Shown: piece by piece, positions 12,601 through 50,088 of the stretch
Position numbering within the stretch: position 1 is the first letter of the stretch
How the letters are laid out: the number at the start of each line of letters is the position of its first letter
NCBI GenBank assembly: GCA_964637135.1
Contig: CAZWTX010000015.1
Location: 1-56,521, forward strand
Source: an uncultured Methanospirillum sp.
GTDB taxonomy: Archaea > Halobacteriota > Methanomicrobia > Methanomicrobiales > Methanospirillaceae
DNA length: 56,521 bases
Direction of reading: 5' to 3'
The notes under the pieces: generated by a model
The model's database searches: none
What the model saw: only the letters and a program-made list of their open reading frames with translations
What the model was told of the DNA's origin: nothing
Position numbers and translations under genes: made by a program

Positions 12601-15600
12601 CAAGACTCCCAAAAACCCGGGCATCCCTCTCTGTAGCATTCAATTGTTTAAGGACAACCTGTGCATGAGTCCAGGCAAGTTCGGATACCCGATCCGCGAT
12701 GTAACTATCGTAATACTTGTCAACAAGGGCAACCGATTTATCCCGGCTTTCACTGACGCCGGTAAAAATATTCACTCCTGCAGTCTCCTGGGGATCCAAT
12801 ATGATTGTGCATCTGATGGCAACCACGGGATCAAGCACCGAACCCGCCGTGTTTGAAAGGACAGATGAATCTGTCATTGCGACAGGATTTGACAGGGAAT
12901 TCATCCTTCCGATAAAATTTGACCTGACCGTCTCGAATGAGATCTCTCGCACCACGGTGCCCTGGACCGTCATGAGATGAAACATCCATGGCGGTTTTTC
13001 ATCCTCTGAACGTGATCTTCTTGTGGCTAGTATCGCATTCTTCTCCTGGAGAAGTTCAGTCTGAACAAAAAGGTTACTGAAGGCCGGATGTGATTCATCA
13101 GAGGACTGGGGAGCCAGGACCACCTCGGCATAACTGGTAAACTCCAGGGTCCTTCGTTTCCAGGACCGGTTTGTTACGCGTATTCTTCGCAGTTCCACGT
13201 CATCTTCAGGAGAAACGATGATTTCGGTGCGGGTATCAATGTCCCGGTCCCGTCTTCTGAATTCAGCACGGGCCTGTTTAAATGTTGTTTGAAAGGTTTC
13301 AGGATTCTTTTGCGTGGGCTGGTATCCATTCGACCAAAACTCTCCACTTGCGAGATCCCTGATATAACAGAAGGTTCCCGAGTTGTCTGTGGTTGGATCT
13401 TCCCGCCACCGGGTAACGGCAAGATCGTTCCACCTGCTGTACCCTGATCCGCTATTATTCACCATCACATGGTAATGTCCGTTCGAGAGAAGGTGTACTT
13501 CAGGCCGGGGTGTCTGTGCGGTCTGAAAGGTACGCGTCAGCGATTCTGACTCACCATTCTTCTTATGCACCCCCTGGACATCACCGGTGTGTGGATAGAA
13601 CGGAGTAATACGGGGCATCTTCTCCTGAAGGAGCATGAGCGTTGCCTGAAGGGAGGGATCTGCTTCAAACCGCCGTTGCATGGGACGATTATGAAGAACG
13701 TAGGTAAGCGAAAGCAACGTCATTCCCTGGTGATGTACCATAAACGACTTCACGATCGCGTGATTCTGGCCGGGAGGAATTCGTGATGGAGTGAAATCAA
13801 CTGCCTCGTAAAAACCGTATGCCCCTGCATATCCGAGTGATTCCATCTCCTTCAGATTCATGCAGGTCAGAGAAGGATGGACCATCAGCCCCATCACTGC
13901 AGCATAAGGGGCAATGACCAGATCTTCAGAAAGACCACGCTTAAACCCTAGACCAGGAACCCCGAATGCCCGGTATTGGTAGTTCTGGTTTGCATCAATG
14001 ATATTATAGCCGGATTCTGATATCCCCCAGGGAACATTCCGCTGCCTACCATACTCCATCTGTCTGTAAACCACCGTACGGTAGGTGCGATCCAGAAGAG
14101 TATTCTCATAATTCGGCATCAGGAGGAGTGGCATGAGGTATTCGAACATCGAACCACTCCAGGAGATAAGCGTTGTTCTGCCCTTTCCGGTGGTCGTGAG
14201 CAGACGCCCTAACGCAAACCAGTGCTCCTGGGGAAGATGCCCCTGGGCAATGCCGATAAAACTGGCCAGTCGTGCTTCAGATGCGAGGAGATCGTAAAAA
14301 CTGGCATCGCGTTTGAGATCTGTTGCATTATACCCGATGGCAAGGAGTTTGCTGGCCGGATCATACAGAAACTCGTACTCGATATCAGAGTACATTTCGC
14401 ATTCCTCTGCACACTCAGATACCCTTCGAATGAGATCTTCGGCCCGGATGCTTGAGATCTCCATCTCTTCCAGCGTTCTGGCAAGCCATTGATATCCGCT
14501 CCCTGGTGTGGTGACAGGATCTGTTCCTGCTGCAACCCACTCCAGTAACGGAGAGAGTTCGCTCTGAAAAACGTCTCTGATATCAGCGATTTCCCGGAAC
14601 GTGGGAATGTGGGTTACGAGTGACTCATATTTTTCCAGGAAGAGGGAGAGAGCGGGCGAAAGGTCAGCAGGAATCTCATTCCGGAGCGTGTCCGGATAAT
14701 TTCCGGTGGACCCCCATGAAAGAACGGAGGTTACATCAGCCAGATATGTCTGTACCTGACGCAATGCTGCATCTGCCCACCACCTGACTTCATCATCAGG
14801 GTATGTACCGAGGATGACGAGAAGGTCTGACCCCGTCTCATTGAGATGGGCAAGATAGTGAATCATCTCGGGAATCGTTTTCGGTATCCGGGGTACTGAC
14901 TCCTTCATCGTCGCAATTTTTGTTCGAACGAGAACCGGTACTTCTCCCGTGCTCGGTTCAGATGCCTGCAATGCATCGGTAAGGAGATGAATCACATCAG
15001 AGAGTCCGTCGGCAAATTTCAGGGAAATAACCGGCTCGTTTGGGAGTTCATAAAGTCCCTGCCGTAGTACCAGCAGATCCGCGACAAGGTTGCCGCTATC
15101 GACCGTGGAGATGTACCGGGGAAGCAGGGGATCTAACGTTATCGTGTCATACCAGTTGTAGAAATGACCCCGGAATCTCTTCAGGTTTCCCATGGTTGCC
15201 AGAGTTTTTTGAGTACGATCGATGAGCTCACCCGCGGGAATGTACCCGAAGTCGTAGGCGGTAAGATTCGCGAGTAAAGAGAGTCCGATATCGGTTGGAG
15301 AGGTCCGATGAGCAATAGCAGCAACCGGATGTTCCTGGTAGTTGTCAGGGGGGAGATAATGATCTTCAGCCGTGACAAAGACTTCAAAAAAACGCCAGGT
15401 TTTTCGTGCAATCGTTCTCAAAAAAAGGTTTTGTTCAGGAGAAAGGGGGGGAGTCCGGGACGTTAGCGGCTGGCTTATCCACCAGGCGATGGCAGGGGAG
15501 AGAATCCATGCACCGGCGAAGATGATGCAGGAAGGAGATACCGATACTGGCAGTAATCCCGGAAGTATGAGCAATCCGGTCCCGATTACCGGTGCTGGCC

Positions 15601-18445
15601 ACATAATACCGTACGAACCGGAAACACCGGAGACCCCCCTTCGGCCAGCTTCCTGGTGGGTGGTCCATTCAAGCAGGTTCTGATGAGAGATCTTCATCCG
15701 CCAGCAGGAGCGAACAATCGCATCAAGACTGATATATGCTTCAAAGGGGAGGAAAGCCAGCGTGAGCAATGGGACGGCAATCATCCCCTGAAGATCAGGG
15801 CCCATATCATGGATATGCATCCTCCAGGTACGCCCTCCCGGCTTTCGAATGATGTTATGAGATATCGTGATTATCGGGGGAATCAGGAACAGCGATACGA
15901 TAAAAACGGTCCAGAAGAGGGGATCTGAAAGAAGCGTCCATGACAGGAGTAAAAGAAGAACGGTAACCGGGGTGGTGAGACTTCGTATCAGATTATCAAA
16001 GATCTTCCATCGTGAAAGAAAAGAGAGCGTGTTTTGTTCCTTTCGAGACGAATTATCAGGAACCGGTGAAAATATCCAGGGGAGAATCTGCCAGTCGCCT
16101 CTGATCCACCGATGTCTCCGGGTGATATCAGCAAGGTAACTTGTGGGATATTCTTCAAAGATCTGTACGTCGCTGACCAGGCCGGTCCGGGCATAGCACC
16201 CCTCCAGAAGATCGTGACTTAATATGAGATTTTCCGGAAACCGACCCTTGACTGCCTGGGAGAATGCGTTGAGATCATAGATCCCTTTTCCAATAAACGA
16301 TCCCTCGAAAAACGCATCCTGGTACACATCGGATACAACACGGGTGTAGGGATCTATTCCCCGTTCGCCCCCAAAGAGTGATACAAACCGGGAGATTCCC
16401 GATTCAGAGAGAGATATGGCCACAAGAGGCTGAAGAATGCCGTATCCTTCGCTGATCACCCGGGTTTTCGGATCGATCCAGGGTCTGTTCAGGGGATGTG
16501 CCATCGCACCAATGAGTGTTCGTGCACTATTCCGGGGGAGATCGGTATCGGTATCCAATGTAATGACATAGGTGATATTCGAAAGCGCTTCCAGATTGCC
16601 AGCGATACACGAAAACGGATTTTTCCCGGGATCTGAGAGGAATTTATTGAATGCTTCGAGGATTCCACGTTTCCGTTCGTATCCCATGAAGATTCCTTCA
16701 CCAGAATTCCAGGTACGGTTCCGGTGCATGAGAAAAAATGTATCCGGGTTTTCTTTCCGGTATTTTTCATTCAGTTTTGTAATTCCACCGGCAAGCAGGG
16801 ATACCAGTTCTGCATCTTCAGGCATCTGTGCGGCAGGGGCCGTTTTAAGATCGGTGAGCAGTGCAAAGAAGAGGTTTCTGTCCTTGTTTGCGAGAAATCT
16901 GATTTCGAGCGACTCAATCAGGTTCGCAATATCTGCAAATCCTGAAAGGACCGTAGGGATAACCACTACCGTTCTCCGATTGTTCGGGATCCCGTGAGAA
17001 TAGTCCATCTTCGGAAGAGATACCGGGGTGAGAACCAGAGTACATACCCAGTTTGTCACTTTCATTGCACTCTGACTGATGGGAAATGCGAGCAATATCA
17101 GAACGGGAAGAATGATGTACCATTCACGGGGCATGAGCCGGGTTACTGCAAAATACAGAACCATGAGGGTGGCGAATACAATCGCACCAATGTAAAGGGG
17201 AAAGAAGTGAGTATGTCCGGTCCTTTTGATCCGATCAATTCCTGACTGATGATGAAAGAGTGCTTCTTCAAGCGTCCTTCTTCCTTCATCTATCAGATAA
17301 TATCCAAGATGAGACTGTCTTTTTTTATGATGTTTGCGTTTTCTCGCTAGACTTGCATGTTCAACCGCTTTTTGTGCAACCAGGTTCTCTGAGATCCCTC
17401 CTTTCCGGGCGATCTCTTCAACCACGTGGCGATACCGGTCCCTGGTTTCAAAATCCATCGCTGCATATTCATCTGCAGGATCACTGCGAAGGGTTTGTTC
17501 AACAATACTCAGCCGTTCAACAAAAGAACGCCAGTCACTGGAATCAAGAAGGCGAAGACTGCTTATGCTGTTTCCAAAAGAGACCTGATCAGCAGCCTGA
17601 GCCTGTATCTCCGCACTGATCATCTGTTCAAGGGTCTGGTTTTTTTCAGATAACCGCTGTTCTATCCATGAAAGGGCAAACAGGAGAGGACCTGAACTTC
17701 CCTGCAGGTGGCGTGCCACCTCGGCAACAAAAGCACTGGTCAGGGGTGGATCCGAACGTGCCATATCAGCAATAACAAGAATGAGACTTTTTGGATCCTG
17801 TCGTGCCATTTTGGTCATGCAATCGACCCAGTAATTGGCAGATTCACGATCTGATCGGTTTTCTGATATAATATCGGCGACTCTGCGCAAATTCTCGATC
17901 AATGCGAGTCTGAACATGATGGGAATTGCCCATAACTCTCCGAGCCTGAGCGGTGTGACCTGCTGGTATGCATCGATAAAAACGAAGAGGTTTTCAGTAT
18001 CTATACGCCCGTCGCTGTGTGCTATGAGTTCTTTTGCGATATGGTAGACCCGGGGATAACCTTCCAGCGGTCCGTTTGCGAGGTGGGGAAGTTCTTTGCT
18101 GTATTCTTCAGGAAGATGGAGACGGGCAACGCGTATCTGCTCCTCGACAAGATAGAAATTATCCAGGAGCCATTCGCCAGCCGGGGCAACCGGTGAATTT
18201 CCTTCAATTACGGTATTGAGGAGTTTATATGCCTTTAACAGAACCTGCTCATTATCGGCAAGCCGGGGCAGAAGGCGATCTTCTCCTTTTCGCGTATCAA
18301 TCCGATAACATTCTGCAATTTCCTTTGCATGCTTCTCCAGTTGATCTCCGCTGAAGAGTTCGTCGCGAAGGGGACCCCGATCAATCTGGTCACGATGATA
18401 TCTTTTTTCCGTCCGTTCTTTTCTGGGTGCAAATGTGTTTCTCAA
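9653..18445 (-). CDS. ndvB: Cyclic beta-1,2-glucan synthase (Cgs/NdvB/ChvB-like): GT84 + central transglycosylase + GH94 phosphorylase domains
   Basis: 2930 aa. GELWAIPIM, ERKRG, TLDTDT, LSHDLLEG, RRHRWIRGDWQ; YDLLASEAR, SWSGSMFEYLMP, WGISES; QSGGAFGFRDQLQD, GDWNDGMN, ENGGHYSHAA. TTG start is uncertain. Confidence 0.92.
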   Translation of the reverse strand: MRNTFAPRKERTEKRYHRDQIDRGPLRDELFSGDQLEKHAKEIAECYRIDTRKGEDRLLPRLADNEQVLLKAYKLLNTVIEGNSPVAPAGEWLLDNFYLVEEQIRVARLHLPEEYSKELPHLANGPLEGYPRVYHIAKELIAHSDGRIDTENLFVFIDAYQQVTPLRLGELWAIPIMFRLALIENLRRVADIISENRSDRESANYWVDCMTKMARQDPKSLILVIADMARSDPPLTSAFVAEVARHLQGSSGPLLFALSWIEQRLSEKNQTLEQMISAEIQAQAADQVSFGNSISSLRLLDSSDWRSFVERLSIVEQTLRSDPADEYAAMDFETRDRYRHVVEEIARKGGISENLVAQKAVEHASLARKRKHHKKRQSHLGYYLIDEGRRTLEEALFHHQSGIDRIKRTGHTHFFPLYIGAIVFATLMVLYFAVTRLMPREWYIILPVLILLAFPISQSAMKVTNWVCTLVLTPVSLPKMDYSHGIPNNRRTVVVIPTVLSGFADIANLIESLEIRFLANKDRNLFFALLTDLKTAPAAQMPEDAELVSLLAGGITKLNEKYRKENPDTFFLMHRNRTWNSGEGIFMGYERKRGILEAFNKFLSDPGKNPFSCIAGNLEALSNITYVITLDTDTDLPRNSARTLIGAMAHPLNRPWIDPKTRVISEGYGILQPLVAISLSESGISRFVSLFGGERGIDPYTRVVSDVYQDAFFEGSFIGKGIYDLNAFSQAVKGRFPENLILSHDLLEGCYARTGLVSDVQIFEEYPTSYLADITRRHRWIRGDWQILPWIFSPVPDNSSRKEQNTLSFLSRWKIFDNLIRSLTTPVTVLLLLLSWTLLSDPLFWTVFIVSLFLIPPIITISHNIIRKPGGRTWRMHIHDMGPDLQGMIAVPLLTLAFLPFEAYISLDAIVRSCWRMKISHQNLLEWTTHQEAGRRGVSGVSGSYGIMWPAPVIGTGLLILPGLLPVSVSPSCIIFAGAWILSPAIAWWISQPLTSRTPPLSPEQNLFLRTIARKTWRFFEVFVTAEDHYLPPDNYQEHPVAAIAHRTSPTDIGLSLLANLTAYDFGYIPAGELIDRTQKTLATMGNLKRFRGHFYNWYDTITLDPLLPRYISTVDSGNLVADLLVLRQGLYELPNEPVISLKFADGLSDVIHLLTDALQASEPSTGEVPVLVRTKIATMKESVPRIPKTIPEMIHYLAHLNETGSDLLVILGTYPDDEVRWWADAALRQVQTYLADVTSVLSWGSTGNYPDTLRNEIPADLSPALSLFLEKYESLVTHIPTFREIADIRDVFQSELSPLLEWVAAGTDPVTTPGSGYQWLARTLEEMEISSIRAEDLIRRVSECAEECEMYSDIEYEFLYDPASKLLAIGYNATDLKRDASFYDLLASEARLASFIGIAQGHLPQEHWFALGRLLTTTGKGRTTLISWSGSMFEYLMPLLLMPNYENTLLDRTYRTVVYRQMEYGRQRNVPWGISESGYNIIDANQNYQYRAFGVPGLGFKRGLSEDLVIAPYAAVMGLMVHPSLTCMNLKEMESLGYAGAYGFYEAVDFTPSRIPPGQNHAIVKSFMVHHQGMTLLSLTYVLHNRPMQRRFEADPSLQATLMLLQEKMPRITPFYPHTGDVQGVHKKNGESESLTRTFQTAQTPRPEVHLLSNGHYHVMVNNSGSGYSRWNDLAVTRWREDPTTDNSGTFCYIRDLASGEFWSNGYQPTQKNPETFQTTFKQARAEFRRRDRDIDTRTEIIVSPEDDVELRRIRVTNRSWKRRTLEFTSYAEVVLAPQSSDESHPAFSNLFVQTELLQEKNAILATRRSRSEDEKPPWMFHLMTVQGTVVREISFETVRSNFIGRMNSLSNPVAMTDSSVLSNTAGSVLDPVVAIRCTIILDPQETAGVNIFTGVSESRDKSVALVDKYYDSYIADRVSELAWTHAQVVLKQLNATERDARVFGSLASSVIYPHPSRRASQKILEKNSRGQSGLWGYGISGDIPLVLVRIQHQSGIDLVKEMVQAHAYWRIKGLMVDLVIWNEEQSGYRQELHDEIMRQIPQGSDYPQLNQKGGIFIRRLEQMSDEDRILIQTVARAILSDRRGTLAQQLERPGWNEIPMPSLIPTRTHNRETDPGLSTSGEDLLYFNGIGGFSPDGKEYLIFTGKEKITPAPWVNVLANEHFGTVISESGSAYTWSENAHEFRLTPWTNDPVSDLSGEALYIRDEETGRFWSPAPLPVRGRNNYITRHGFGYSVFEYAGNGIHTTLTVLVSRHDPVKILSLRVKNQSGRARFLSVTCYVEWVLGESRSRSLPYVITEQDPVTGAVIAKNPYNSEFPGRIAFLDSNILNRTITGDRYEFIGRNGSMEKPAAMDQERLSNKVGAGLDPCAAIQVVCELTEGEEREIIFTLGIGRDEEDARTLVLRNRGVGAARASLKAVNDFWASTLGSVNITTPDPSVDLLVNGWLLYQTIVSRLWARSGFYQSGGAFGFRDQLQDVMALIHTKPELARKQLLLCASHQFSEGDVQHWWHPPIGRGVRTRCSDDYLWLPYATCRYVTATNDFEILDEVVPFLEGRKVHPDEDSYYDLPGISASDGTLYEHCVRAIRLSLKVGVHGLPLMGTGDWNDGMNLVGAGGQGESVWLGFFLYDLLIQFARISTSRNDPGFAECCRANADLMRDNLEKSGWDGEWYRRAFFDSGQPLGSSINQECRIDSLSQSWAVLSGAASKERGISAMEAVGTHLIWYDEGLVSLFTPPFDSSVMNPGYIKGYVPGVRENGGHYSHAAIWVAMAFAVLKDPEQAWNLVSFISPIDHSKTHQDVQKYRVEPYVMASDIYTAPSYSGRGGWTWYSGSAGWMYTLILESLLGLEVRGDLLTFNPCIPEIWESYQINYQYLSSRYHISIIKRGPGSAVRSMSVDGCIQPDRTVHLVDDEGEHQVVVELGNTVSHLS

Positions 18446-19219
18446 CGCCTTATTAATCTCCGATAATTTTTTCCAAATTCGAAAAATGCAAAACCAGACC
18501 GCAGGAGTTTATTGTCATTTCACTGTCAGGAGAGAAACGGCTCTCTATCGTATTATTACTTCTGATCAGTACCAAATCAGAGAAAACAGGATCAGATCTC
18601 ATCAATTCCCTGATCGGACGGGATGAACACCACGGCAGTATTCCTGAAGTAATATGCCGGACGGAAGATCCGGGGAGAGAGAAAAGACTGGCGATTCTCT
18701 CTCTTTTTCACAAATTCCGCGATGAGGGAGTATGGTTCAAGCCTGGAGAGTATACGCCATGGTGGCAGGCTCCGGGTAGTGTCAGGATATTCCTGGAACA
18801 AACGACCCAATATTCTATGCCCCATACCCCCCGATTCATATAAGGAGATACCTCGCAATCGGGCAATCCGGTTCTGGGGAGGGGCCTTGGTGGTAACACT
18901 TCAATCCCTGTGAGACGGGGGTTTATTTGCATATTACGGCCCGTATCTGGAGAAATCGGTGATAGGTTTTCACTCTCCTCGTTCCATTCCGTCAGCATCA
19001 TGGAAACCCGGGGATTCTTTTGATCACATCTAATCCTTCCGGATATTCTTTTCAGACACTATCACAAGAACAAAAAAAGACGAAAAACAATTATTGCCGT
19101 GTCGTCGCTGGTCCGGTTCCCTGTCGGTGAACGGATCCCTCTCCTTGGGCAAAAAACCTGTATCTCTCATGAAATTTCAAAAATCGGTTAAATATTTACA
19201 TTCAGAGAGCGGTTAACCG

Positions 19220-19609
19220 GTGTGAAAAAAGTCGTCTTAACAAGGGATACCTCAAAGGATGTCTACCGGTGTGATCCCTATCGGTGGATCTATTATCCTG
19301 AGAGAGGAGATCCCACCCAGAATATTCCTCCCGGCACGTCGTTTTCCGACCTGCCGGATACCTGGCGATGCCCCTCCTGCAAGGAACCGAAACGAGTGTT
19401 CGTGTGGATAGAGCGGGATCAGGAATGTACGGACAATATTGGATCATGAGGGATTTGGTTCATCTGTCCTGATAATCTCCGCCTGTACTAACCGGGATAA
19501 TCATCAGATTCCTCACCAATTCATCTCCGGACCGGACCGTATCTCTGGTATTCCCCGGGTAATGAGATGATCTCTCCGGATACATGAATTAATCAATCCG
19601 TACTGATGC
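19220..19609 (+). repeat. 390-bp direct repeat, copy 1
   Basis: Matches 25402-25791 (offset 6182); one mismatch seen (19229 A vs 25411 T). Confidence 0.97.
19222..19449 (+). CDS. Rubredoxin-like protein, copy 1 (first CxxC reads CxxY)
   Basis: YRCDPYRWIYYPERGDP..IPPGTSFSDLPDTWRCPSC follows the rubredoxin consensus. Confidence 0.75.
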   Translation: MKKVVLTRDTSKDVYRCDPYRWIYYPERGDPTQNIPPGTSFSDLPDTWRCPSCKEPKRVFVWIERDQECTDNIGS

Positions 19610-19764
19610 TTCAGATGAGTGGGTGTAACCAATCCATGGTGTTCTACCTCCTTATCAGGTAGAAGTCATCAGCCCGATGGACAGTTAATGGCGGACCTCA
19701 ATCGCCGTATGAGTAAAAGATTAGGTGGGATGGTATAATGGCTTTCAGATATGAAAGGAAATCT

Positions 19765-20538
19765 CTATTTTACCGTAGCAAGTTGCTGGGGATTCTGTTT
19801 CAGATCTGAAAATAATACCGGCTGGATATCGTATGCTTTGAATACCTGCAGGGATTCATCTTTGACCGGTTTAGAAATATCATCAATAATTGGGACGTAT
19901 TCTGAATCTTTTGTCCGGATCTCCTGGACATCATTCCATTCAAATATCAACGCCTCTATCCTATCCTTTCGAACTGAGGAAATAAGTTTTATCACCTGCT
20001 CGGGTTTTGTCCTGGTTCTCGCAATGATAAAGTCGAATGATTGGAATAATCCTGATTTCCCGGCAAGTCGTATGTCCGGTACTATTGGGATATCGTTATC
20101 GATGAGAAGTCGCTCCACATCTTCGCGGAAGAGGGATTGGATTTGCGGGCGACTGAGGTAATGCAGATCATTGATCGCAAGAATTGCCTGGATGAGATCA
20201 TGGACTTTTTGAGGGAAATTCGCTTTATCTGTTTGTATTGTTAAAGCTTCATCGGAATCAACTTTCACGCCATAGGATCGGATGACCGTTGCAAAGATCT
20301 CTTGCCGGTTTTTACCGGTTATTTCAACCCCGCTCTGTATAAGATCATGAATGGTATATCCATCGTCGGTGAGGAGGAAATGCGTCCCTTCAGGCACTAC
20401 ATATATCTGGATCCGGTCATTGTGGTTGTCTTTGAAAGGAGTAGTGATCTGATACGCACCATTCACCTGACCACAGGTAAGATTGCTTTGTAACCAGGTC
20501 TGGTATGACCCGACAAGCTGTTCACACATGCTGGTCAT
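19765..20538 (-). CDS. DUF1828/DUF1829-like protein
   Basis: ITTPFKDNHNDRIQIY, LTDDGYTIHDL, QAILAINDL, FREDV, GKSG..FDFII motifs. Confidence 0.8.
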   Translation of the reverse strand: MTSMCEQLVGSYQTWLQSNLTCGQVNGAYQITTPFKDNHNDRIQIYVVPEGTHFLLTDDGYTIHDLIQSGVEITGKNRQEIFATVIRSYGVKVDSDEALTIQTDKANFPQKVHDLIQAILAINDLHYLSRPQIQSLFREDVERLLIDNDIPIVPDIRLAGKSGLFQSFDFIIARTRTKPEQVIKLISSVRKDRIEALIFEWNDVQEIRTKDSEYVPIIDDISKPVKDESLQVFKAYDIQPVLFSDLKQNPQQLATVK

Positions 20539-21049
20539 GGAACTGCTCCTGATACGAGATATGGGGGACTCCCGTTATTGTACAATATTGACAGAATTCC
20601 TTAAAGGTTTGTATGAGGTTTTCTGGATCGGTAAATACTTCCTCAGGCATAGGGATAGCCCACCTGTCATCGAATCCATGTTGATAGATATGGAGATGGG
20701 GGCAGGGAAGGTGCGTACCGATGAATGGAGTGAATCTGTGATCGCTGGGCGGTACATCAGGGTTATCATGAGGGCGCCCGTTGAGATCAAGCCGGATGAG
20801 GTGAAACATCTCCAGATATCTGTTTTGAAATGTGCACCGGTATGTGTTGATTTTTCCCTTTCTGTCGATGTCAAACGTTATGTGGTATTTAGGATCGTAG
20901 ACGAGAGAAACGGAGAGTAACAGTACAGAGTTCGGGTTCGGGAAGCTGATCCTGGCATCAACAATCTTTTTTTCTGCCCGAATCAGGTAATCAGCCAGGT
21001 CCTGTGACATCGGAGGTATGGTTGATCGAGAGCCATCATTTTTGTCCAT
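20522..21049 (-). CDS. DUF6978-like protein
   Basis: ADYLIRAEK, TFQNR, LIRLDLNGRPHDNPD, CPHLHIYQHGFDDRWA. Real start is probably 21049 or 21010; 17-nt overlap with the next gene. Confidence 0.75.
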   Translation of the reverse strand: MDKNDGSRSTIPPMSQDLADYLIRAEKKIVDARISFPNPNSVLLLSVSLVYDPKYHITFDIDRKGKINTYRCTFQNRYLEMFHLIRLDLNGRPHDNPDVPPSDHRFTPFIGTHLPCPHLHIYQHGFDDRWAIPMPEEVFTDPENLIQTFKEFCQYCTITGVPHISYQEQFHDQHV

Positions 21050-21142
21050 TTCTCTTCCCAACTGTGTAGTATCAGGAATAATACGTCTGATGACCAGATA
21101 TAAACCGGATTCTATTTGGTGCAGTATAAATAATCTCACACT

Positions 21143-24100
21143 ATGGTCTGTCCCCCAGAAGTGCTTGAACTCGTTAATCGATTCGGTGCATACCGTGATA
21201 AATACAAATCCGGTGACTATAACGAGACGCAGCTCCGCAATGAATTTCTCAATCCTTTTTTTGAAGCACTCGGGTGGGACATATATAATAAGGCGGGCTA
21301 TTCTGAAGGATACAAAGATGTGATCCATGAAGACCGGGTTAAGATAAAAGGGGTCACCAAAGCTCCAGATTACTCGTTTCGGATTGGGACTGAACGGAAA
21401 TTTTTCGTTGAAGCCAAGAAACCAAGTGTTAATGTCAGGGAGGATCCGGGGCCAGCCCTGCAGATCCGGCGGTACGGATGGAACGCGAAACTGCCAGTTT
21501 CTATCCTGACTGATTTTGAAGAGTTTGCCATCTACGATTGCACGATAAAACCGGGCGATAAGGATGACTCCGGGCACTCCCGGATATTTTACTGTAAGTT
21601 TTCCGATTATGAAGAAAAATGGGATTGGATAGTTGAACGGTTCAGTAAAAATGGTATCCTTCACGGGGGGCTGGATACCTATACTGAAGAACTGGTGAAA
21701 GGAAAAGCGGGGAAAGGGACCGTCACGGTTGATAAGGAATTTCTTGCATCCCTTGAAACCTGGCGTGAAGCCCTGGCGAAGAATATCGCTCTTCGCAATC
21801 CAGACCTCTCCATCCGTGAACTGAATGATGCGGTTACTAAAACGATTGACCGGTTGGTCTTTCTGCGGATCTGCGAGGACCGGGGAATTGAACGGGAAGA
21901 TCAGTTGCGATTGATTGGTGAAGGAAAGGATATCTACACTCGACTGACCGATCTCTTCCGGTATGCTGATGACAAGTTCAATTCAGGCCTGTTTCATTTT
22001 TCTGATGAGAAAGGGTGGGACGAAAGCCCAGATATGCTGACGCTTTCCCTGAAAATTGATGACAAAATCCTCAAAGATATCATCAGTGGGTTATATTATC
22101 CGAAATCACAGTTTGAATTCTCGGTGATGCCGGCAGATATTCTCGGTCAGGTCTATGAACAGTTCCTTGGAAAGGTTATCCGGCTTACTGAAGGACACCA
22201 GGCAAAGGTGGAAGAGAAACCGGAGGTCCGGAAAGCTGGTGGTGTCTATTATACGCCTACCTACATCGTTGATTATATCGTCAGGCATACCGTGGGAGAC
22301 CTGGTCAGAGATAAGACACCGAAAGAGCTTGCTTCCCTCCGGGTGCTGGATCCCGCCTGTGGATCGGGTTCATTTCTGATCGGGGCGTACCAGTTTCTGC
22401 TTGACTGGCATCTCCTCTGGTATATGGAGTACCTCACTCCGCTCCTGAAAGCCGGAGCATCTCCGAATTCTAAAGAGATATGCGATCTACTTCCGGCCGG
22501 AATCAGGCAGGTTCCGGTGAAAGGGAAGAAGGGAAAATCACCGGAATATCCGCTCCCGGTGTTTCAGGTCTCTGAAACCGACTGGAAACTTACCACTGAT
22601 GAGAAGAAGCGGATTCTTATCAACAATATGTACGGGGTTGATATCGATCCGCAGGCGGTGGAGGTGACAAAGCTCTCCCTGCTCCTCAAAGTACTGGAAG
22701 GGGAGCGGGCTGAGTTGATCAATACTCAGTTGAAGATCACTGCTGAACGGGTGCTTCCGTCACTTCATAAGAATATAAAATGTGGAAATTCCCTGATCGG
22801 GAGTGATATCCTGAGTCAAATCACTCTTGATGGCGAAGAAATTTATAGGGTTAATCCATTCGATTGGGAGCGGGAATTTCCAGAGATTATAACAGGAGGA
22901 GGGTTTGATGCAGTAATCGGAAACCCTCCGTATATCAGAATACAAACCATGAAAGAATGGGCTGCTTATGAGGTTAACATATACAAAAAAATCTACTGCT
23001 CCGCTCAGAAAGGGAATTATGATATTTATGTAATATTTATAGAAAAAGGTTCGGAACTTCTCAACCAAAATGGTCGTTTGGGATTCATTCTTCCACACAA
23101 ATTTTTTACAGCAAAGTATGGAGGACCAATCCGAGAGTACATTTATCAGAAAAAAACTCTTCATAGTGTGGTTCACTTTGGCCATCAGCAGATTTTTAGT
23201 GGAGCAACAACCTATACTTGCCTCCTCTTTTTATCCAATTGTTCACAACCGAACTTTTCCTTCATATCCGTGACTGATATTGACGAATGGAAGAAATCGT
23301 CTGACCATGAAGTAATTACTATTCCTATAGAGAAGGCTTCAACTGCAGATTGGATTTTTGTTTCTGATATTAACGACTCCCTAATGAAAAAAATTGAAGG
23401 GCAGGGAAGAAAACTCGCAGAAATATCTCATACATTTGTTGGGACACAAACAAGTGCTGAGGATATTTTCGTCCTTCGAAACTGTACAACTGATTCTGAA
23501 ACCATAACCGGGTATTCTAAGGCATTAAATGAGTCCGTGACGGTTGAAAAAAATGCGGTAAAATGGTTTCTAAAAGGGAAAAATATCCGACGATATCTTC
23601 CACCTGTTACTGATTTTGCTGTTGTATGCCCGTATGAAATTACATCAGACTCATTTCATTTGTTACAAGAAAAGTCATTAAAAACAACATTTCCATTAGC
23701 GTATACCTATCTCCTCCGTAATAAGAAATTTTTGATGGAACGAGAAAAGGGGAGATTTAATGGACCGAATTGGTTTGCTTACGGTTATCCCAAAAGTATG
23801 ATATTATTTCAGCGTCACAAGATTATTTGTCCATTCTATGACAATAAAGCTGCATATTCATATGATGTTTCTGGATTTTATTTTAAAACCGGATATGGGA
23901 TAATTTTAACAGATGACGAGTATTCTGATTACTATCTTCTTGGTCTATTAAATTCAAGATTATTATTTTGGTATTATCTTCAGATCTGTACGTTCTTGAG
24001 TTCCGGGTATGCTCACTATATGACTCAATACATTGAGCAGTTACCCATTGCCCCTATTGGAAGAAATGAGGAGTCTCAAACCCGAATAATTTCTTTGGTT

Positions 24101-24274
24101 GAGAATCTGCTTGAATTATATAGACAACTTCCGAAAATTAAAGCAGACCACGAACGATCTGTCATCGAACGTCAGATCGACGCAACCGACCGTGCTATCG
24201 ACAAACTCGTCTATGAACTCTACGGTCTCACAGATGACGAGATTAGAGTAATAGAAGAGCGTGTTTATCAGTAA
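21143..24274 (+). CDS. Type IIG (Eco57I/TaqI-like) fused restriction endonuclease / N6-adenine methyltransferase
   Basis: N-terminal PD-(D/E)xK (APDY...VEAKK), GVYYTP, LDPACGSGSFL, GNPPY, C-terminal TRD ending IDKLVYELYGLT. Confidence 0.92.
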   Translation: MVCPPEVLELVNRFGAYRDKYKSGDYNETQLRNEFLNPFFEALGWDIYNKAGYSEGYKDVIHEDRVKIKGVTKAPDYSFRIGTERKFFVEAKKPSVNVREDPGPALQIRRYGWNAKLPVSILTDFEEFAIYDCTIKPGDKDDSGHSRIFYCKFSDYEEKWDWIVERFSKNGILHGGLDTYTEELVKGKAGKGTVTVDKEFLASLETWREALAKNIALRNPDLSIRELNDAVTKTIDRLVFLRICEDRGIEREDQLRLIGEGKDIYTRLTDLFRYADDKFNSGLFHFSDEKGWDESPDMLTLSLKIDDKILKDIISGLYYPKSQFEFSVMPADILGQVYEQFLGKVIRLTEGHQAKVEEKPEVRKAGGVYYTPTYIVDYIVRHTVGDLVRDKTPKELASLRVLDPACGSGSFLIGAYQFLLDWHLLWYMEYLTPLLKAGASPNSKEICDLLPAGIRQVPVKGKKGKSPEYPLPVFQVSETDWKLTTDEKKRILINNMYGVDIDPQAVEVTKLSLLLKVLEGERAELINTQLKITAERVLPSLHKNIKCGNSLIGSDILSQITLDGEEIYRVNPFDWEREFPEIITGGGFDAVIGNPPYIRIQTMKEWAAYEVNIYKKIYCSAQKGNYDIYVIFIEKGSELLNQNGRLGFILPHKFFTAKYGGPIREYIYQKKTLHSVVHFGHQQIFSGATTYTCLLFLSNCSQPNFSFISVTDIDEWKKSSDHEVITIPIEKASTADWIFVSDINDSLMKKIEGQGRKLAEISHTFVGTQTSAEDIFVLRNCTTDSETITGYSKALNESVTVEKNAVKWFLKGKNIRRYLPPVTDFAVVCPYEITSDSFHLLQEKSLKTTFPLAYTYLLRNKKFLMEREKGRFNGPNWFAYGYPKSMILFQRHKIICPFYDNKAAYSYDVSGFYFKTGYGIILTDDEYSDYYLLGLLNSRLLFWYYLQICTFLSSGYAHYMTQYIEQLPIAPIGRNEESQTRIISLVENLLELYRQLPKIKADHERSVIERQIDATDRAIDKLVYELYGLTDDEIRVIEERVYQ

Positions 24275-24300
24275 TATTTTGAAAAAAAGGATGTGATGAA

Positions 24301-25155
24301 ATGTATTCTGGCGGAAGATTACAAAATAGCCATACCTATGAGGAGATTTATCAGACAGCCTGTGATATTCTCGTTGGAAATGATCCATTAAAAAGTCCTT
24401 TTAATGGTGAAATTGCACAATATATCTCATTTCATTGTAGAATCGCAGAAATATTATATCTTCGGGAAAACAATCTTGAAAAACTTCCGCCGAATATTGA
24501 TGGTCACATCAGATTATCTGATGATGACGAAGAGATATTTCGCGATGTATTCTGGGATCTCTTCAGGCAGGGGATAATAACTCTGGGATATAACAATAGC
24601 AATGAAAAATACCCCTGGTTTCGTGTATCCTATCATGGGAAGAAGATTCTTGAAAACCAGTCATTATACTATTTCCACAGTGTTGAGACATATGAAACGG
24701 TACTCAGGGAGAATATACCTGGTATTGATGACGTAACCGTCACCTATCTGAAGGAAGCAATGCAGTCATATCTCCATGGATGTGTTCTTTCGGCAACGGT
24801 CATGTTAGGTGTGGCAACAGAGCACTCATTTGATCTCCTCCTTGAAGATGTTCAAGCAAATGTTCAATATTCATCGGTATTTGGAAATTTGTTCACAGAA
24901 AGAACTGCCCTCCAGCGAATGAACAAGTTCAAAAATACTTTCCCTCAAATCGGAAAAGATCTTCCGAAAGAGGTCAAGGAAGGATTTGATACTGATATGA
25001 TGGCAATAATGGAGACGATCAGAAATTTCAGAAACGAATCGGGACACCCTTCAGGAAAGAGGATTAGTAGAGAACAGGTGTATATTCTCCTGCACCTGTT
25101 CATACCATGTTGTAAAAAGATTTACCAGATCAGAGATTTTTTTGTGAATACCTGA
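24301..25155 (+). CDS. Hypothetical protein with C-terminal HEPN/DUF4145-like domain
   Basis: EAMQSY...SATVMLGVATE helix and RNESGH (Rx4H) motif; AT-rich. Confidence 0.65.
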   Translation: MYSGGRLQNSHTYEEIYQTACDILVGNDPLKSPFNGEIAQYISFHCRIAEILYLRENNLEKLPPNIDGHIRLSDDDEEIFRDVFWDLFRQGIITLGYNNSNEKYPWFRVSYHGKKILENQSLYYFHSVETYETVLRENIPGIDDVTVTYLKEAMQSYLHGCVLSATVMLGVATEHSFDLLLEDVQANVQYSSVFGNLFTERTALQRMNKFKNTFPQIGKDLPKEVKEGFDTDMMAIMETIRNFRNESGHPSGKRISREQVYILLHLFIPCCKKIYQIRDFFVNT

Positions 25156-25401
25156 TAATTTTCTGAAGAAGGATCTCCCACCTTCCCCGGTGATTCATCA
25201 AAAAGATGCTCATCCTGATTAACCTGGGGAATTTCAGAGGGAACGGGGGTAACTTTCACCCGCTCTTTGATATGTACTCTGATTGCTTTCAGAGGTTCAC
25301 AAAACCCATCAATCAGGCCGCTGTTTTTTATATCCATGGGAATTGCCGGGGCATATAACTGGTACACGAGGAGAAAAAAACGGTGCCAGAGATTTCAGAC
25401 C

Positions 25402-25791
25402 GTGTGAAAATAGTCGTCTTAACAAGGGATACCTCAAAGGATGTCTACCGGTGTGATCCCTATCGGTGGATCTATTATCCTGAGAGAGGAGATCCCACCC
25501 AGAATATTCCTCCCGGCACGTCGTTTTCCGACCTGCCGGATACCTGGCGATGCCCCTCCTGCAAGGAACCGAAACGAGTGTTCGTGTGGATAGAGCGGGA
25601 TCAGGAATGTACGGACAATATTGGATCATGAGGGATTTGGTTCATCTGTCCTGATAATCTCCGCCTGTACTAACCGGGATAATCATCAGATTCCTCACCA
25701 ATTCATCTCCGGACCGGACCGTATCTCTGGTATTCCCCGGGTAATGAGATGATCTCTCCGGATACATGAATTAATCAATCCGTACTGATGC
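25402..25791 (+). repeat. 390-bp direct repeat, copy 2
   Basis: Matches 19220-19609. Confidence 0.97.
25404..25631 (+). CDS. Rubredoxin-like protein, copy 2
   Basis: Same as copy 1 except residue 3 (K to I). Confidence 0.7.
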   Translation: MKIVVLTRDTSKDVYRCDPYRWIYYPERGDPTQNIPPGTSFSDLPDTWRCPSCKEPKRVFVWIERDQECTDNIGS

Positions 25792-25948
25792 ATATATTAG
25801 ATAATCACATGGTATTCGCGTCTCCCCTGACTGACCTCGTACCGCACTTTTACCGTTCGCTCTCCTGCCCCCGGACTCAAAGTGGAATATTCACCGGTAC
25901 CGGGAGGGGGAGCGGATCCATTCCCATCCTGATATACAGGTGCAAAGC

Positions 25949-26338
25949 ATGAAGATCCAGATCAATACCGGCAGAACCGTTACCCAGGGCTCGTACGTGG
26001 ATCGGAAAAATACTCCTGAATATTACCGGGAGACGTCAACCATCCGGCTGAACCCGGTCGACATGATGAACATCGGGGTTGATGACGGTGAACGCGTAAT
26101 GGCGAAGAGCGGTACGATGGGAATCGTGCTCAGGGCTCTCGCCGATGAAACAATTTCGAGCGGGACCGGTTTTCTCCCCCTTGGACCATATGCCAATTAC
26201 CTCGTGGAGGGAACGACCCACAGCACCGGGATGCCTGATTTCAAATTTCTGGTTGTGGAGATCGAACCTACCGGGGATGAGGTGCTTCGGGTGGGTGACC
26301 TCATGAAACAACTGGGGGGTGTTCCCTATGAGCGATAA
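25949..26338 (+). CDS. fwdD: Formylmethanofuran dehydrogenase subunit D (set 1)
   Basis: NTGRTVTQG, LNPVDM, GPYAN, TGMPDFK. Confidence 0.92.
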   Translation: MKIQINTGRTVTQGSYVDRKNTPEYYRETSTIRLNPVDMMNIGVDDGERVMAKSGTMGIVLRALADETISSGTGFLPLGPYANYLVEGTTHSTGMPDFKFLVVEIEPTGDEVLRVGDLMKQLGGVPYER

Positions 26339-27632
26339 GGTTCGGCATGTCATCTGTCCGTATTGCGGATGCCTCTGTGACGACATCCTGATTGAACTGA
26401 CCGACGGGAAGGTATCCGGGGTTGAGAATGCCTGTACTCTTGGCGCCCGTAAATTCCTGGACGATTCCGGAAACCGCCTGAAAAGTCCGATCATGCGCAA
26501 GGGGAACGAGTGGGTCGACATCTCCTATGAAGAGGCCGTATCATATGCCGTAGATATCCTCTCAAAAGCAGATCGGCCGCTCTTATACGGCTGGTCGGGC
26601 TGTGTAACTGAAACCCAGGCCATCGGTGTCCACCTGGCAGAGCTCATCGGCGGCGTCATCGACAGCACCACCTCGGTCTGTCATGGCCCCTCCATCCTCG
26701 CAATCCAGGAGGTCGGTCACCCCGGCTGTACTCTCGGACAGGTGAAAAACCGTGCTGACACTGTCATATACTGGGGTTCAAACCCGATAGAAGCCCATCC
26801 CCGTCACTTGAGCCGGTATACCTATTATGCCGATGCGTATTTCCTGCATAACGCATTCCGGGAACGGAAAATAATCGTTTTTGACGTGAGGAAGACAGCT
26901 ACGGCAGAGATAGCGGATATTTACGTTCAGATTGATCAGGGTGGAGATTACCATGTCCTCTCAGCGCTCCGGGCGATAATCCGTGGTCGTGAAGACCTGA
27001 TCCCGGAGCAGGTTGCCGGAGTGCCCCGGGAACAACTGATACGGGTTGCAGAGATCTGTAAATCAGCAAAATTCGGGGCTCTGTTCTTCGGGGTCGGGAT
27101 CACCATGACCGGCGGGAAATATAAGAACATCAGGAATGCCATCGAATTTGTTGATGAGTTGAACCGGCATACCAAGTGGACCATTTCCCCGATGCGTGGC
27201 CATTCGAACGTGTATGGGTCAAATGAAGTGTTCACCTGGATCTCGGGATATCCGTATGCCGTGGATTATTCACGGGGGATAGCATTTTACAACCCTGGAG
27301 AAACCACCGTTGTCGATATTCTTGCACGGGGTGAGGCTGATGCCGCCCTGATTATGGCCAGCGATCCTGGTGCCCATTTCCCGCGGGTATGCTGTGAACA
27401 CCTGGCAAAGATCCCCACTATTCTCTTTGATCCCTATCCGAGTGCAACCACCCATCTCTGCACGGTCCAGATTCCATCAGCCGTCAATGGGATTGATGCG
27501 GAGGGGACCGCCTACCGGATGGATGGCATTCCCATTAGGACCCGGAAATTTATTGAAACCGGGTATCCCTCCGACACATCCATTCTTGAGGATATCTATG
27601 AGCGGATCAGGGAGGCAAAAAGAAATGCGTGA
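26328..27632 (+). CDS. fwdB: Formylmethanofuran dehydrogenase subunit B (set 1)
   Basis: CPYCGCLCDD, SVCHGP (Cys ligand), VKNRAD, HPRHLSRY, MRGHSN, YRMD. Confidence 0.95.
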   Translation: MSDKVRHVICPYCGCLCDDILIELTDGKVSGVENACTLGARKFLDDSGNRLKSPIMRKGNEWVDISYEEAVSYAVDILSKADRPLLYGWSGCVTETQAIGVHLAELIGGVIDSTTSVCHGPSILAIQEVGHPGCTLGQVKNRADTVIYWGSNPIEAHPRHLSRYTYYADAYFLHNAFRERKIIVFDVRKTATAEIADIYVQIDQGGDYHVLSALRAIIRGREDLIPEQVAGVPREQLIRVAEICKSAKFGALFFGVGITMTGGKYKNIRNAIEFVDELNRHTKWTISPMRGHSNVYGSNEVFTWISGYPYAVDYSRGIAFYNPGETTVVDILARGEADAALIMASDPGAHFPRVCCEHLAKIPTILFDPYPSATTHLCTVQIPSAVNGIDAEGTAYRMDGIPIRTRKFIETGYPSDTSILEDIYERIREAKRNA

Positions 27633-29325
27633 ATTGCTGATAAAAAATGCCTATGTCATCGATCCCCTCCAGGGTATTCACGGAGACATCATGGATATCC
27701 CGGTTCGTGACGGGAGAATTGTCGGGAGCGTCTCCGGGAGATCCGAAGTTATCGACGCCGGAGGTCACCTGACCCTTCCCGGGGGGATCGATTCCCACAC
27801 GCATGTATGTGGTACGAAAGTGAACTTCGGCCGCTATATGAGTCCTGAAGACATGCGGGCCGGAAGAACCCCCCGGAAAGGGCCGATGTATCCGACATCC
27901 GGGTATACCGTTCCGACGACATACGGGAACAGTTACCGGTACAGTAAAATGGGATATACCACTCTTCTTGAGGGTGCCATGGCTCCCATGGAGGCACGCC
28001 ACACCCACGAGGAGTTTGCTGCGACTCCCATGCAGGATATGCTTGCGAACACGCTTTTTGACGGAAACTGGAGTCTTTTTGAGGCAGTGGGGGATAAGGA
28101 TGTCCGGCAGGCAGCGGCGGTCATCGGCTGGACGCTCTCGGCTGTGAAGGGATTTGGCATTAAACTGACGAATCCGGGCGGAACCGAAGCGTGGGGATTT
28201 GGCGATGATCTGGCCAGCATCGATGAGGAAGTACCGAACTGGACGATCACTCCCCGGGAGATCATCGACACGACGATCAAGGCATGCGAACTCCTCCATC
28301 TTCCCCATTCGGTTCATCTCCATTGCAATAACCTGGGCATGCCGGGAAATTACCGGACAACCCTGCAGACCCTCGATATCCCGTCAGACCTGAACCCGGA
28401 TCGGCAGACCTTGTATCTGACCCATCTCCAGTTCCATTCATACGGGGGAAGTACCTGGGGGGACATCCGTTCAGAAGCAGAGAAAATTGCCGGATCGGTG
28501 AATACCAAACCGCATGTCGTCATCGACATGGGCCAGGTAATGTTTGGAAGAACCATGACCATGACGGCCGATGGTCCGATGGAGTTCAGGCTCCACATGC
28601 TCCATCATAACAAATGGAGCAACCACGATGTAGAACTGGAAACCGGTTCAGGCATCATTCCCGTCTATTACAGCCGAAAAAGCCTGGTCAACAGCATCAT
28701 GTGGGCCATCGGGCTTGAGCTTGCCCTGCTCGTAAAAAATCCCTGGCAGTGTATGCTGACAACCGATAATCCGAATGGAGCGCCCTTCGTCAAGTACCCG
28801 GAGATCATCGGACTGCTCATGTCGGGGAAATACCGGGCCAGAGAGCTTGATAATGTACATAAACTCACGACCGACCGGACTTCTCTCGGTACCATCGATC
28901 GCGAACTCAGTTTTGAAGATATCGCGGTGATGACCCGGTCCGGACAGGCAAAAGCCCTGGGGTTGATTGATCAGGGCAAGGGACATTTCCGGGAGGGAGC
29001 CCTTGCAGATATTGCCGTGTACCCGGTCCGGCCGGATCAGACTGATCCGGCAATCCAGTACGAAGAGGTGATCGGGGCCTTCCAGCAGACGCTCTATACC
29101 CTGAAAGATGGCATTGTCGTCAGCAGGAACGGGGAAGTGATAACCGGTGTTGCAAACCGGACGTTCTGGACCGATCCACAGATACCCGCGGAGATGGACA
29201 TCCGGAACAGTCCCCGGTTTATTGAGAAATTTTCACGGTACTACTCGATGGACCTTGAAAATTATCTGGTTCAGGACGAATACGTGCAGCGGGGGGTTGC
29301 AATGAAGAGCGGGGTATCATCATGA
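27625..29325 (+). CDS. fwdA: Formylmethanofuran dehydrogenase subunit A (set 1)
   Basis: GGIDSHTH, NPGG, HLHCNNLG, QFHSYGG, WAIGLEL, TTDNPN; ATG at 27625. Confidence 0.95.
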   Translation: MRELLIKNAYVIDPLQGIHGDIMDIPVRDGRIVGSVSGRSEVIDAGGHLTLPGGIDSHTHVCGTKVNFGRYMSPEDMRAGRTPRKGPMYPTSGYTVPTTYGNSYRYSKMGYTTLLEGAMAPMEARHTHEEFAATPMQDMLANTLFDGNWSLFEAVGDKDVRQAAAVIGWTLSAVKGFGIKLTNPGGTEAWGFGDDLASIDEEVPNWTITPREIIDTTIKACELLHLPHSVHLHCNNLGMPGNYRTTLQTLDIPSDLNPDRQTLYLTHLQFHSYGGSTWGDIRSEAEKIAGSVNTKPHVVIDMGQVMFGRTMTMTADGPMEFRLHMLHHNKWSNHDVELETGSGIIPVYYSRKSLVNSIMWAIGLELALLVKNPWQCMLTTDNPNGAPFVKYPEIIGLLMSGKYRARELDNVHKLTTDRTSLGTIDRELSFEDIAVMTRSGQAKALGLIDQGKGHFREGALADIAVYPVRPDQTDPAIQYEEVIGAFQQTLYTLKDGIVVSRNGEVITGVANRTFWTDPQIPAEMDIRNSPRFIEKFSRYYSMDLENYLVQDEYVQRGVAMKSGVSS

Positions 29326-30095
29326 TGCAGGTTATTCTCACCATGAAACCCCGGGAAAAACCCTTTCTTCCCATAGAAGCCGAGATGATCGCACCGATGT
29401 TTTTCATCGGGAACCACGAACTGTTTGTCTGGGAAGGGAATAAAAAACGGCGTATAGAGGATATTTTCACCATTCGGAAAGAGGGGAATGTAAACTCTCC
29501 GGAAAACATCGTGGTCATCCTCCGGGGAGATACCGGCCGGGTAAAGCGGGTAGGCGAGTATATGTCATCCGGGACGATCATCGTGGAGGGTGATATCGGG
29601 ATGCATTGCGGGAATTTCATGCGAGGCGGAACCATTGAAATTCACGGCAATGCTGACGGATGGCTCGGACGTGAGATGCGTGGCGGGACCATCATCTGTC
29701 ATGGGAATACCGGAGACTACTGCGGATCCGGGTATCGCGGCGAAAAGCGGGGGATGCGTGGCGGTAAGATAGAGATCCTCGGGAATGCCGGTGATTACCT
29801 GGGAGAATACCTGACCGGCGGAGAAATCCATGTTCACGGAGATGCCGGGATGTTTGCCGGTGCAGAAATGCGTGGCGGGATCCTCGTAATCGACGGAGAT
29901 GCATGGATTCCTGCGGCCAACATGTCAAAAGGGACGTGTATCGTCAGGGGAGAGGTCCATGAGATGCTTCCGACATTTGAAAAGATTGGCGAGAAAGAAG
30001 GCCTGGTCGTGTATCATGGCGATATTGCCAACAAAGGCAAGGGCGAACTGATGATTGGTATGCCGGCGAATGACGATACCCGTTCCATCCCCTGA
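29322..30095 (+). CDS. fwdC: Formylmethanofuran dehydrogenase subunit C (set 1)
   Basis: Repeated GxxMxGG beta-helix, YRGEKRGMRGG. Confidence 0.95.
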   Translation: MMQVILTMKPREKPFLPIEAEMIAPMFFIGNHELFVWEGNKKRRIEDIFTIRKEGNVNSPENIVVILRGDTGRVKRVGEYMSSGTIIVEGDIGMHCGNFMRGGTIEIHGNADGWLGREMRGGTIICHGNTGDYCGSGYRGEKRGMRGGKIEILGNAGDYLGEYLTGGEIHVHGDAGMFAGAEMRGGILVIDGDAWIPAANMSKGTCIVRGEVHEMLPTFEKIGEKEGLVVYHGDIANKGKGELMIGMPANDDTRSIP

Positions 30096-48979: not shown

Positions 48980-48992
48980 GGGGGAAGCAGAC

Positions 48993-49994: not shown

Positions 49995-50088
49995 TCCCTA
50001 TTTTTCCGGACGGCTCAGCCGATCCCGGAAAATCCCTCTTCTTTAAAAAAAAACCACCAGACGGATGGATCCTGTCAGCCCGGTTTTT

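Follow-up and report, generated by a model that had tools for sequence, protein, structure and literature searches.

Insertion of restriction-modification (R-M) genes with long target duplication was reportedly described by Nobusato et al. in 2000. In the class as defined by Furuta, Abe & Kobayashi in 2010 (PMC2853133), the insert is <20 kb, the duplication is >30 bp and homologs of R and M genes are present; the paper gives repeats of up to 423 bp with left-right identities of 86-100%, often spanning a start or stop codon. It also states that no archaeal case survived the 2010 screen and that release and re-infection are without experimental evidence. Here we compare this class with a defence cassette in an uncultured Methanospirillum sp. 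(GCA_964637135.1; genome G000 below, a short-read assembly of 2.80 Mb in 116 contigs, 97.7% complete). The window, that is, the stretch of DNA analysed, comprises the 56,521 nucleotides of contig C15 (CAZWTX010000015.1) in full, and in it a cargo of 5,792 bp with four defence-like genes is enclosed by direct repeats of 390 bp that carry a rubredoxin-like gene. We consider it somewhat more probable than the alternatives combined (roughly 0.55) that this cassette is an R-M insertion with long target duplication, the copies of which were later homogenised by gene conversion. The insertion is likely older rather than very recent, and integrase-free.

Repeat copies in the assembly and in environmental sequence runs

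The left repeat copy (19220-19609, + strand) contains the rubredoxin-like gene and 160 bp 3' of it, and the right copy, a resident-type allele, lies at 25402-25791 (+). Each begins 2 nt 5' of the rubredoxin start codon, the spacing is 6,182 bp, and the assembled copies differ at a single position (A at 19229, T at 25411). No other full copy is present in the 2.80-Mb genome, which otherwise holds one paralog 76% identical to the gene part. Among 19 pairs from a self-comparison of G000 (≥120 bp, ≥88% identity), the 390-bp pair ranks highest in identity. The cargo has a GC content of 42.6% versus 52.4% for the genome, and 16 of 1,167 genome windows are equally low. The absence of mobility functions noted earlier is borne out: none of the four cargo open reading frames (ORFs) matches a recombinase or transposase in Pfam, in which transposase families were not searched individually, and the outermost 80 nt at the two ends, whether of the cargo or of the unit, share no inverted repeat of ≥7 nt.

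Six of 20 matching sequence runs (X1-X6) were compared, all as Logan contigs. X1 is the probable source run and so not independent, X5 is another sample of the same study, X2 comes from another study and X6 is sediment from another study; gaps in cargo coverage in X3 and X6 were not used as evidence. In X1, separate contigs cover all four junctions (left flank to repeat, cargo end to repeat, repeat to cargo start, and repeat to fwdD flank). The repeat itself appears there as a bubble with two 79-bp arms, one matching the window at depth 5.6, the other, at depth 5.5, differing from it by 8 substitutions at 19448-19466. X1 has 12 changed places over 13 kb, 8 of which fall inside the bubble, so a second strain in this run is unlikely. 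An X5 contig carries the 8 differences of X1 plus 4 more at 19510-19540 (12 in total) and continues into the cargo start. An X2 contig (19225-19690) has 20 substitutions and one 1-bp gap, namely the 12 differences of X5 together with 8 substitutions and the gap at 19423-19439. Because all 20 other letters of the X2 contig are accounted for, it carries the left-copy base at 19229, and it runs from there through the alternative patch into the cargo. The alternative patch sits on the left copy, directly in X2 and X5 and by extension in X1.

Left-copy differences number 21 in X2, 12 in X5 and at least 8 in X1, with each set nested in the larger one. The 21 sites span 118 of 380 bp (within 19423-19540), a clustering equalled by 0 of 200,000 random placements: divergence is 18% in this patch and zero over 19230-19422 and 19541-19609. 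Against 21 differences in these 118 bp there is 1 in the other 272 bp, so any model has to include homogenisation at some time after the duplication. The lineage is otherwise >99.9% identical (1 difference in 1,989 bases among the pieces listed for X2 elsewhere), and the 11 cargo pieces listed for X2, X3, X4 and X5 show no difference; the cargo is present in runs of four studies. The nested alleles point to homogenisation acting within a nearly clonal lineage. True left-right identity is about 94-98%, versus 99.7% in the assembly, where near-identity is partly an artefact of bubble collapse. The description of the repeats as identical apart from one base is accurate for the assembly and fails for X1, X5 and X2, and the very recent event deduced from it is not sustained. 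The contigs likewise uphold the assembled junctions but not the assembled repeat, which was collapsed with loss of the left-copy patch.

Reading the alleles by hand, the X2 allele stops at codon 69 (68 aa, as in the paralog on contig C12) and the resident allele at codon 76. Neither stop is left in the alternative allele of X1 and X5, whose frame runs on to codon 90 (89 aa), as expected of a recombinant. The two copies are probably still recombining, and homologous recombination between them, which the earlier note had anticipated, is supported by the nested mosaic left copies.

A cargo-free allele was found in X6 on an 808-bp contig (depth 6.7), in which 291 letters, whose shown end equals window 19088-19117, are followed by 25457-25973, in which one letter differs. 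The two parts meet in 12 bp of microhomology (19118-19129, +), identical at 11 of 12 positions to 19275-19286 and 25457-25468, so the site is not a clean empty one, nor did a clean crossover of the two repeats produce it. The contig lacks 19118-19274, including the first 55 bp of the repeat; it derives either from the filled allele by one 6,339-bp deletion or from an empty site that lost 157 bp separately. Among the joints listed for the six runs, none skips the cargo to give a complete empty site. A second X6 contig, from an 88%-identical relative, aligns from 25731 on, and the last 61 bp of the repeat are therefore native fwdD-upstream DNA. The repeat is host DNA, as proposed in the earlier note.

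Proposed origin and retention of the cassette

Both ends of the cargo are decayed parts of a fluoride-resistance island. Near the left end is an orphan fluoride riboswitch (crcB motif; 19653-19715, - strand; Rfam RF01734, 39.8 bits with a cut-off of 34), the only one detected in G000. The ATG behind it opens just 8 codons and no fluoride-related gene is under its control; DNA at 19660-19761 is 74% identical to the fluoride island of another genome (G002). Near the right end is a 3' fragment of about 38 codons (25263-25376, -) of a winged helix-turn-helix (wHTH) gene known from Methanomicrobiales fluoride-resistance islands, matching residues 158-196 of the 199-residue G002 protein at 61-62% on the amino-acid level (E = 3.6e-7), with homology fading at about 25380. 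In G002 the wHTH gene ends about 135 bp from the riboswitch; here the defence genes separate the two remnants, each of which ends within about 50 bp of a repeat. We take the neighbours of this pair in G002, from sequence likeness, to be dynamin-like, crcB, DUF190 and enolase genes. Other island genes (dynamin-like, prenyltransferase-like, MFS and full-length wHTH) were not found in the 97.7% complete G000, the exceptions being a separate crcB cluster on contig C10 and enolases. On these matches, the cargo is likely a cut-out of a decaying fluoride-resistance island. Three other candidate features were set aside. A 47-bp motif near the left cargo end, present in about 40 of 300 genomes of the order, was dropped as a recombination site once Rfam identified it as the fluoride riboswitch; the mismatch at 25411 is unsupported as a mark of wHTH-derived microhomology, since homology fades near 25380; and a supposed remnant of a dynamin-like gene within the repeat failed a comparison in which 450 of 3,000 random segments scored equally high.

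In the sequence of events that we favour, defence genes would first have entered the island, with the wHTH gene on one side of them and the fluoride riboswitch on the other. Host repair would then have joined a piece, its ends illegitimate, to the rubredoxin-fwdD site in a single event, duplicating the target from a point 2 nt ahead of the start codon. The copies would subsequently have diverged, or one would have carried a donor patch, and RadA-type gene conversion, or excision and re-entry into a sister chromosome, would erode the patch on the left copy. Polyploidy in methanogens would favour gene conversion. Crossovers that delete the cargo would be selected against, more likely for virus defence than for addiction. 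Retention of the cargo in samples of four studies suggests selection for it. Post-segregational killing is described for Type II systems (PMC2993543 and PMC12707154) and is doubtful for a single-chain Type IIG enzyme, so a defence benefit is the likelier reason for retention than addiction.

Several observations weigh against this reading. The unit is not covered from end to end by any contig, nor is the complete right copy together with its two flanks, and the two arms in X1 cannot be phased. The collapsed repeat has depths of 15.6 and 13.7, and the arms sum to 11.1 (5.5 + 5.6), all under twice the single-copy depth of 9-10. The lack of the 19510-19540 differences in X1 may be due to bubble removal, which would leave two states rather than three, and the contigs of X2, X5 and X6 are single, with depths of 3-7. 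The cargo-free allele is without the first 55 bp of the repeat, and the ancestral empty site was not seen. None of 24 genus genomes contains the locus or offers it for comparison. The order of events is our inference, and the divergent patch could have arrived with donor DNA.

The strongest competitor, which is also the mechanism put forward in the earlier note, is less probable, at under half the weight given to the preferred reading. In this model, one donor-type repeat and the cargo formed a circle that entered the chromosome through a single crossover within the rubredoxin gene, and the unit can leave and return. A crossover within 19230-19422 predicts what is seen, namely resident-type sequence at the 5' end of the left copy and alternative sequence at its 3' end, with resident-type 3' ends on both the right copy and the cargo-free allele; the X5 allele is also obtainable by excision and re-entry. 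In X1 the cargo has 1.15 times the flank depth, leaving room for some circles or tandem copies, although contig depth is no measure of copy number. However, a diverged donor should differ also in the coding part and the last 69 bp, and only 1 difference lies outside the patch, a pattern that a single crossover alone does not produce. All six runs are without a listed circle joint or clean empty site, although the 390-bp repeat hides such a joint in high-depth contigs, and the cargo has no replication or recombinase gene.

A more far-reaching version is rather unlikely: a recombinase-free archaeal module that uses a dead host gene as a handle, with a 6.2-kb unit that leaves the chromosome, integrates again into sister chromosomes and, under pressure from viruses, amplifies. 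If this is true, the nested left-copy alleles would be footprints of such cycles, and the locus would allow release and re-infection, the unproven steps in the proposed virus-like life cycle of R-M systems, to be tested in nature. The related idea of a reusable landing pad finds no backing, as no other cargo was seen at the site of the cassette in the 24 genus genomes.

About as improbable is remodelling in place, by which a fluoride island at the rubredoxin-fwdD boundary gained defence genes, underwent a 6.2-kb tandem duplication and then deletions, and nothing arrived as a unit. That both cargo ends are decayed island parts fits this scheme, as does the microhomology deletion at the same site in X6. 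The site is also rearranged: fwdD directly follows a hydrogenase-type operon in 8/8 fwdD loci viewed in relatives, unlike in the window. Yet three or more events are required, none of the other island parts named above is found in G000, and no relative was found with an island at the cassette site.

Movement in trans by a site-specific recombinase, with the cassette as a non-autonomous element resembling a cis-mobilizable element (CIME) and the 390 bp incidental, is very improbable. G000 does encode three tyrosine recombinases (PF00589), only on contigs C1, C31 and C50 and thus apart from the cassette, and in G013 related defence and fluoride genes adjoin a primase-like mobile-element gene that has homologs in G000. 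However, the junctions carry no tRNA end (best shared word 9 nt among 48 tRNAs), dif-like palindromes occur at background rate, being seen in 41% of random stretches, and the cargo ends cut through genes of another locus. An assembly artefact, in which a single chromosomal copy is present and the cargo resides on a separate molecule or strain, deserves equally little credence, for although a short-read genome in 116 contigs and a repeat depth under twice the flank depth would allow it, and the source graph alone cannot separate an integrated unit from chromosome plus circle, cargo and flank have similar depth, an X2 contig joins the left-type start to the cargo start, and difference-free cargo pieces occur in runs of four studies.

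Genes of the cassette and its surroundings

The cargo encodes four defence-like genes, in agreement with the first assignment. PDC-M24B (19765-20538, -; 257 aa) is a defence candidate with DUF1828 and DUF1829 domains (PADLOC E = 6.7e-86; Pfam), and PDC-M24A (20522-21010, -; about 162 aa, with its start codon assigned by inference) has DUF6978 (PADLOC E = 9.9e-41; PF22398 E = 2.2e-33). The two genes are adjacent, as they are also at further loci in Methanomicrobiales. A search of 18 genus genomes gave no PDC-M24B, but 41/350 genomes of the order have matches, many of them partial. The third gene (21143-24274, +; open frame) encodes a predicted Type IIG R-M enzyme of 1,043 aa (PADLOC REase_MTase_IIG E = 3e-252), a single chain that holds nuclease motifs (PD75..E90-A-K), adenine-methylase motifs (motif I at 401, NPPY at 594) and a target-recognition region. 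The last (about 22930-24170) is AT-rich, at 36% GC, and a homolog 84% identical in genome G023 aligns at the DNA level only outside this region, which together suggest exchange of the specificity domain.

The fourth gene (24301-25155, +) encodes a 284-aa protein with a predicted N-terminal winged helix and C-terminal HEPN domain (structure model pLDDT 88). It belongs to no Pfam, NCBIfam or PADLOC family and has 1,049 homolog clusters; an Atlas search returned only unnamed clusters, at 0.97, and Foldseek gave no match to the model at E ≤ 0.001. The C-terminus of the model aligns to the HEPN protein AF0298 (Z 10.1, r.m.s.d. 3.5, 118 residues) and RnlA (Z 9.2), and its N-terminus to winged helices. 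The top VIA-align rows are mostly HEPN (Z 8.4-10.1), with the Roquin ROQ domain second at 9.7, and all are under 13, which is not decisive for a helical bundle. R241, R244, N245 and H249 are invariant in 85/85 aligned sequences, and R244-N-E-S-G-H249 forms an R-x4-H motif. From the model and these residues, the protein is likely a toxin-like HEPN RNase. Type IIG and HEPN genes adjoin each other also in G023, in a different context, and one cargo protein has a 76% homolog from Methanospirillum sp. A homolog of the 284-aa protein lies in an Acidobacteriota locus (L167:6426-15921) among genes that we take to encode nucleotidyltransferase-like and nuclease-like proteins, a neighbourhood consistent with a role of the wHTH-HEPN family in defence.

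The rubredoxin-like ORF of the repeat (19222-19449, +; 75 aa as assembled) matches PF00301 (E = 1.7e-18) and lies below the NCBIfam cut-off. Both assembled copies have C17-D-P-Y20 as first motif rather than C-x-x-C, so that one Cys ligand is lost and neither has the two CxxC motifs of a rubredoxin. All 21 family matches that share the N-terminal extension, 20 of them in relatives and one the C12 paralog, keep CxxC. Because C-D-P-Y replaces CxxC in both copies, the gene is likely dispensable. The paralog with intact CxxC (C12:18960-19129; 68 aa) lies beside a gene that is presumably superoxide dismutase-like. The family is matched in 19/24 genus genomes, never across the 3' part of the repeat. 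Several relatives (L023, L026, L038, L042 and L043) carry a rubredoxin family gene directly after fwdC of another fwd cluster, and the corresponding cluster of G000 (window 48960-53563) has none, so the copy in the window may be a displaced ortholog.

On the left, the cassette is flanked by a 2,930-aa protein with GH94 and glucoamylase domains (9653-18445, -), which we take to be cyclic beta-glucan synthase-like. On the right is the host formylmethanofuran dehydrogenase cluster fwdD-B-A-C (25940-30095, +), in which fwdA and fwdC are presumed identities from gene order. At 25792-25940, ahead of fwdD, the usual upstream hydrogenase-type operon is missing; in G000 it ends at a contig edge (C4:1-2100). 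Elsewhere in the window, a 61-bp intergenic stretch (18975-19035) recurs 36 kb away at 54953-55012 with 84% identity, and 55566-56032 comprises two tandem 233-bp copies (92%) within a predicted secreted protein.

G000 has a crcB-crcB-DUF190-like cluster (C10:49655-50692) with no fluoride riboswitch found beside it, and G002 has six riboswitches above the cut-off within 14 kb. On G002 contig C5, a 116-bp direct repeat (L132:4633-4748 and 9736-9851; 97%) covers riboswitch copies, and within the fluoride island it encloses genes that we assume to be transposase-like (one) and MutS-like (two). Regions with a primase-like gene of about 1,050 aa and a 166-aa companion gene occur in L127 (G013), L128 (G014), L051 (G009) and on G000 contigs C30, C41 and C18; in the genus, such regions adjoin fluoride islands and a Type IIG gene, and may be a vehicle of such cargo. 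Long near-identical repeats around related cargo were not seen in the 7 loci scanned, where repeats are mostly shorter or 76-89% alike. Scans of metagenome contigs with repeat motifs gave 0 matches, and scans of viral sequences with the motif and with the Type IIG protein gave 0 relatives, blanks that carry no weight as negatives. A promoter scan, which does not extend to archaeal promoters, detected none.

Comparison with described systems

CIMEs and composite transposons are known to carry cargo between repeated ends without an integrase of their own. The cassette differs from CIMEs in that no att core or tRNA target was found at it and dif-like palindromes are no more frequent than background, and from composite transposons in that its repeat codes for rubredoxin, exists in two copies only, and comes with no insertion sequence and no terminal inverted repeats.

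Two of the cargo genes have counterparts in catalogued defence systems. Both PDC-M24 profiles of PADLOC match adjacent cassette genes; Payne et al. 2024 (bioRxiv 2024.01.29.577857) count 145 PDC systems and term them untested. The validated protein DS-6B (DS-6/HipAD, PMC13092281) contains DUF1829 and pairs it with DUF3037 and a HipA kinase, whereas the cassette pairs it with DUF1828 and DUF6978. Type II R-M genes of H. pylori (bioRxiv 2023.06.29.547018) are similarly flanked by repeats, with loss proposed to proceed by intramolecular recombination; empty strains there keep a single repeat copy, whereas in the one empty contig here the joint is of the microhomology type and the remaining copy is truncated. 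In Methanomicrobiales, the same order, neighbouring paralogous sequences are reported to be homogenised by gene conversion (PMC4632066). That case concerns essential genes in one operon over billions of years, whereas here a likely dispensable rubredoxin gene surrounds foreign cargo.

A literature search that covered few subscription papers found no case of target duplication in methanogens, no paper on PDC-M24, nothing on integrase-independent defence with direct repeats and nothing on a fluoride riboswitch together with Methanospirillum. What the locus does add is two defence candidates in a methanogen, PDC-M24 and a widespread wHTH-HEPN family (>1000 clusters), and anti-virus defence in methanogens matters for digester stability. 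The locus also warns against dating an event from the near-identity of repeats in a short-read genome.

The closest match is the long-target-duplication class itself. The cassette shares with it R-M genes, a 5,792-bp insert, 390-bp host repeats of imperfect identity that span a translation start or stop, and the lack of a mobility gene; repeats in Table 3 of the 2010 paper reach 393-423 bp (PMC2853133). With insert size and repeat length counted as two, agreement extends to five of six features of the class. For the sixth, an empty site with one target copy in a related genome, the X6 contig links left flank, repeat and fwdD flank with no cargo but is without 19118-19274, perhaps through a later deletion. 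It differs in its archaeal host, in the addition of PDC-M24 and wHTH-HEPN genes, in ending in fluoride-island remnants, in having nested mosaic copies across samples, and in the lack of a clean single copy in its only cargo-free allele. Should circles or tandem copies exist, the locus would test the release step, which according to that paper has no experimental support (PMC2853133). The population data suggest that recombination between the copies outpaces mutation in the lineage, with the cargo retained. The architecture is thus an already described way for R-M genes to move and opens no new class; to the known examples the cassette adds an archaeal one whose repeats are among the longest.

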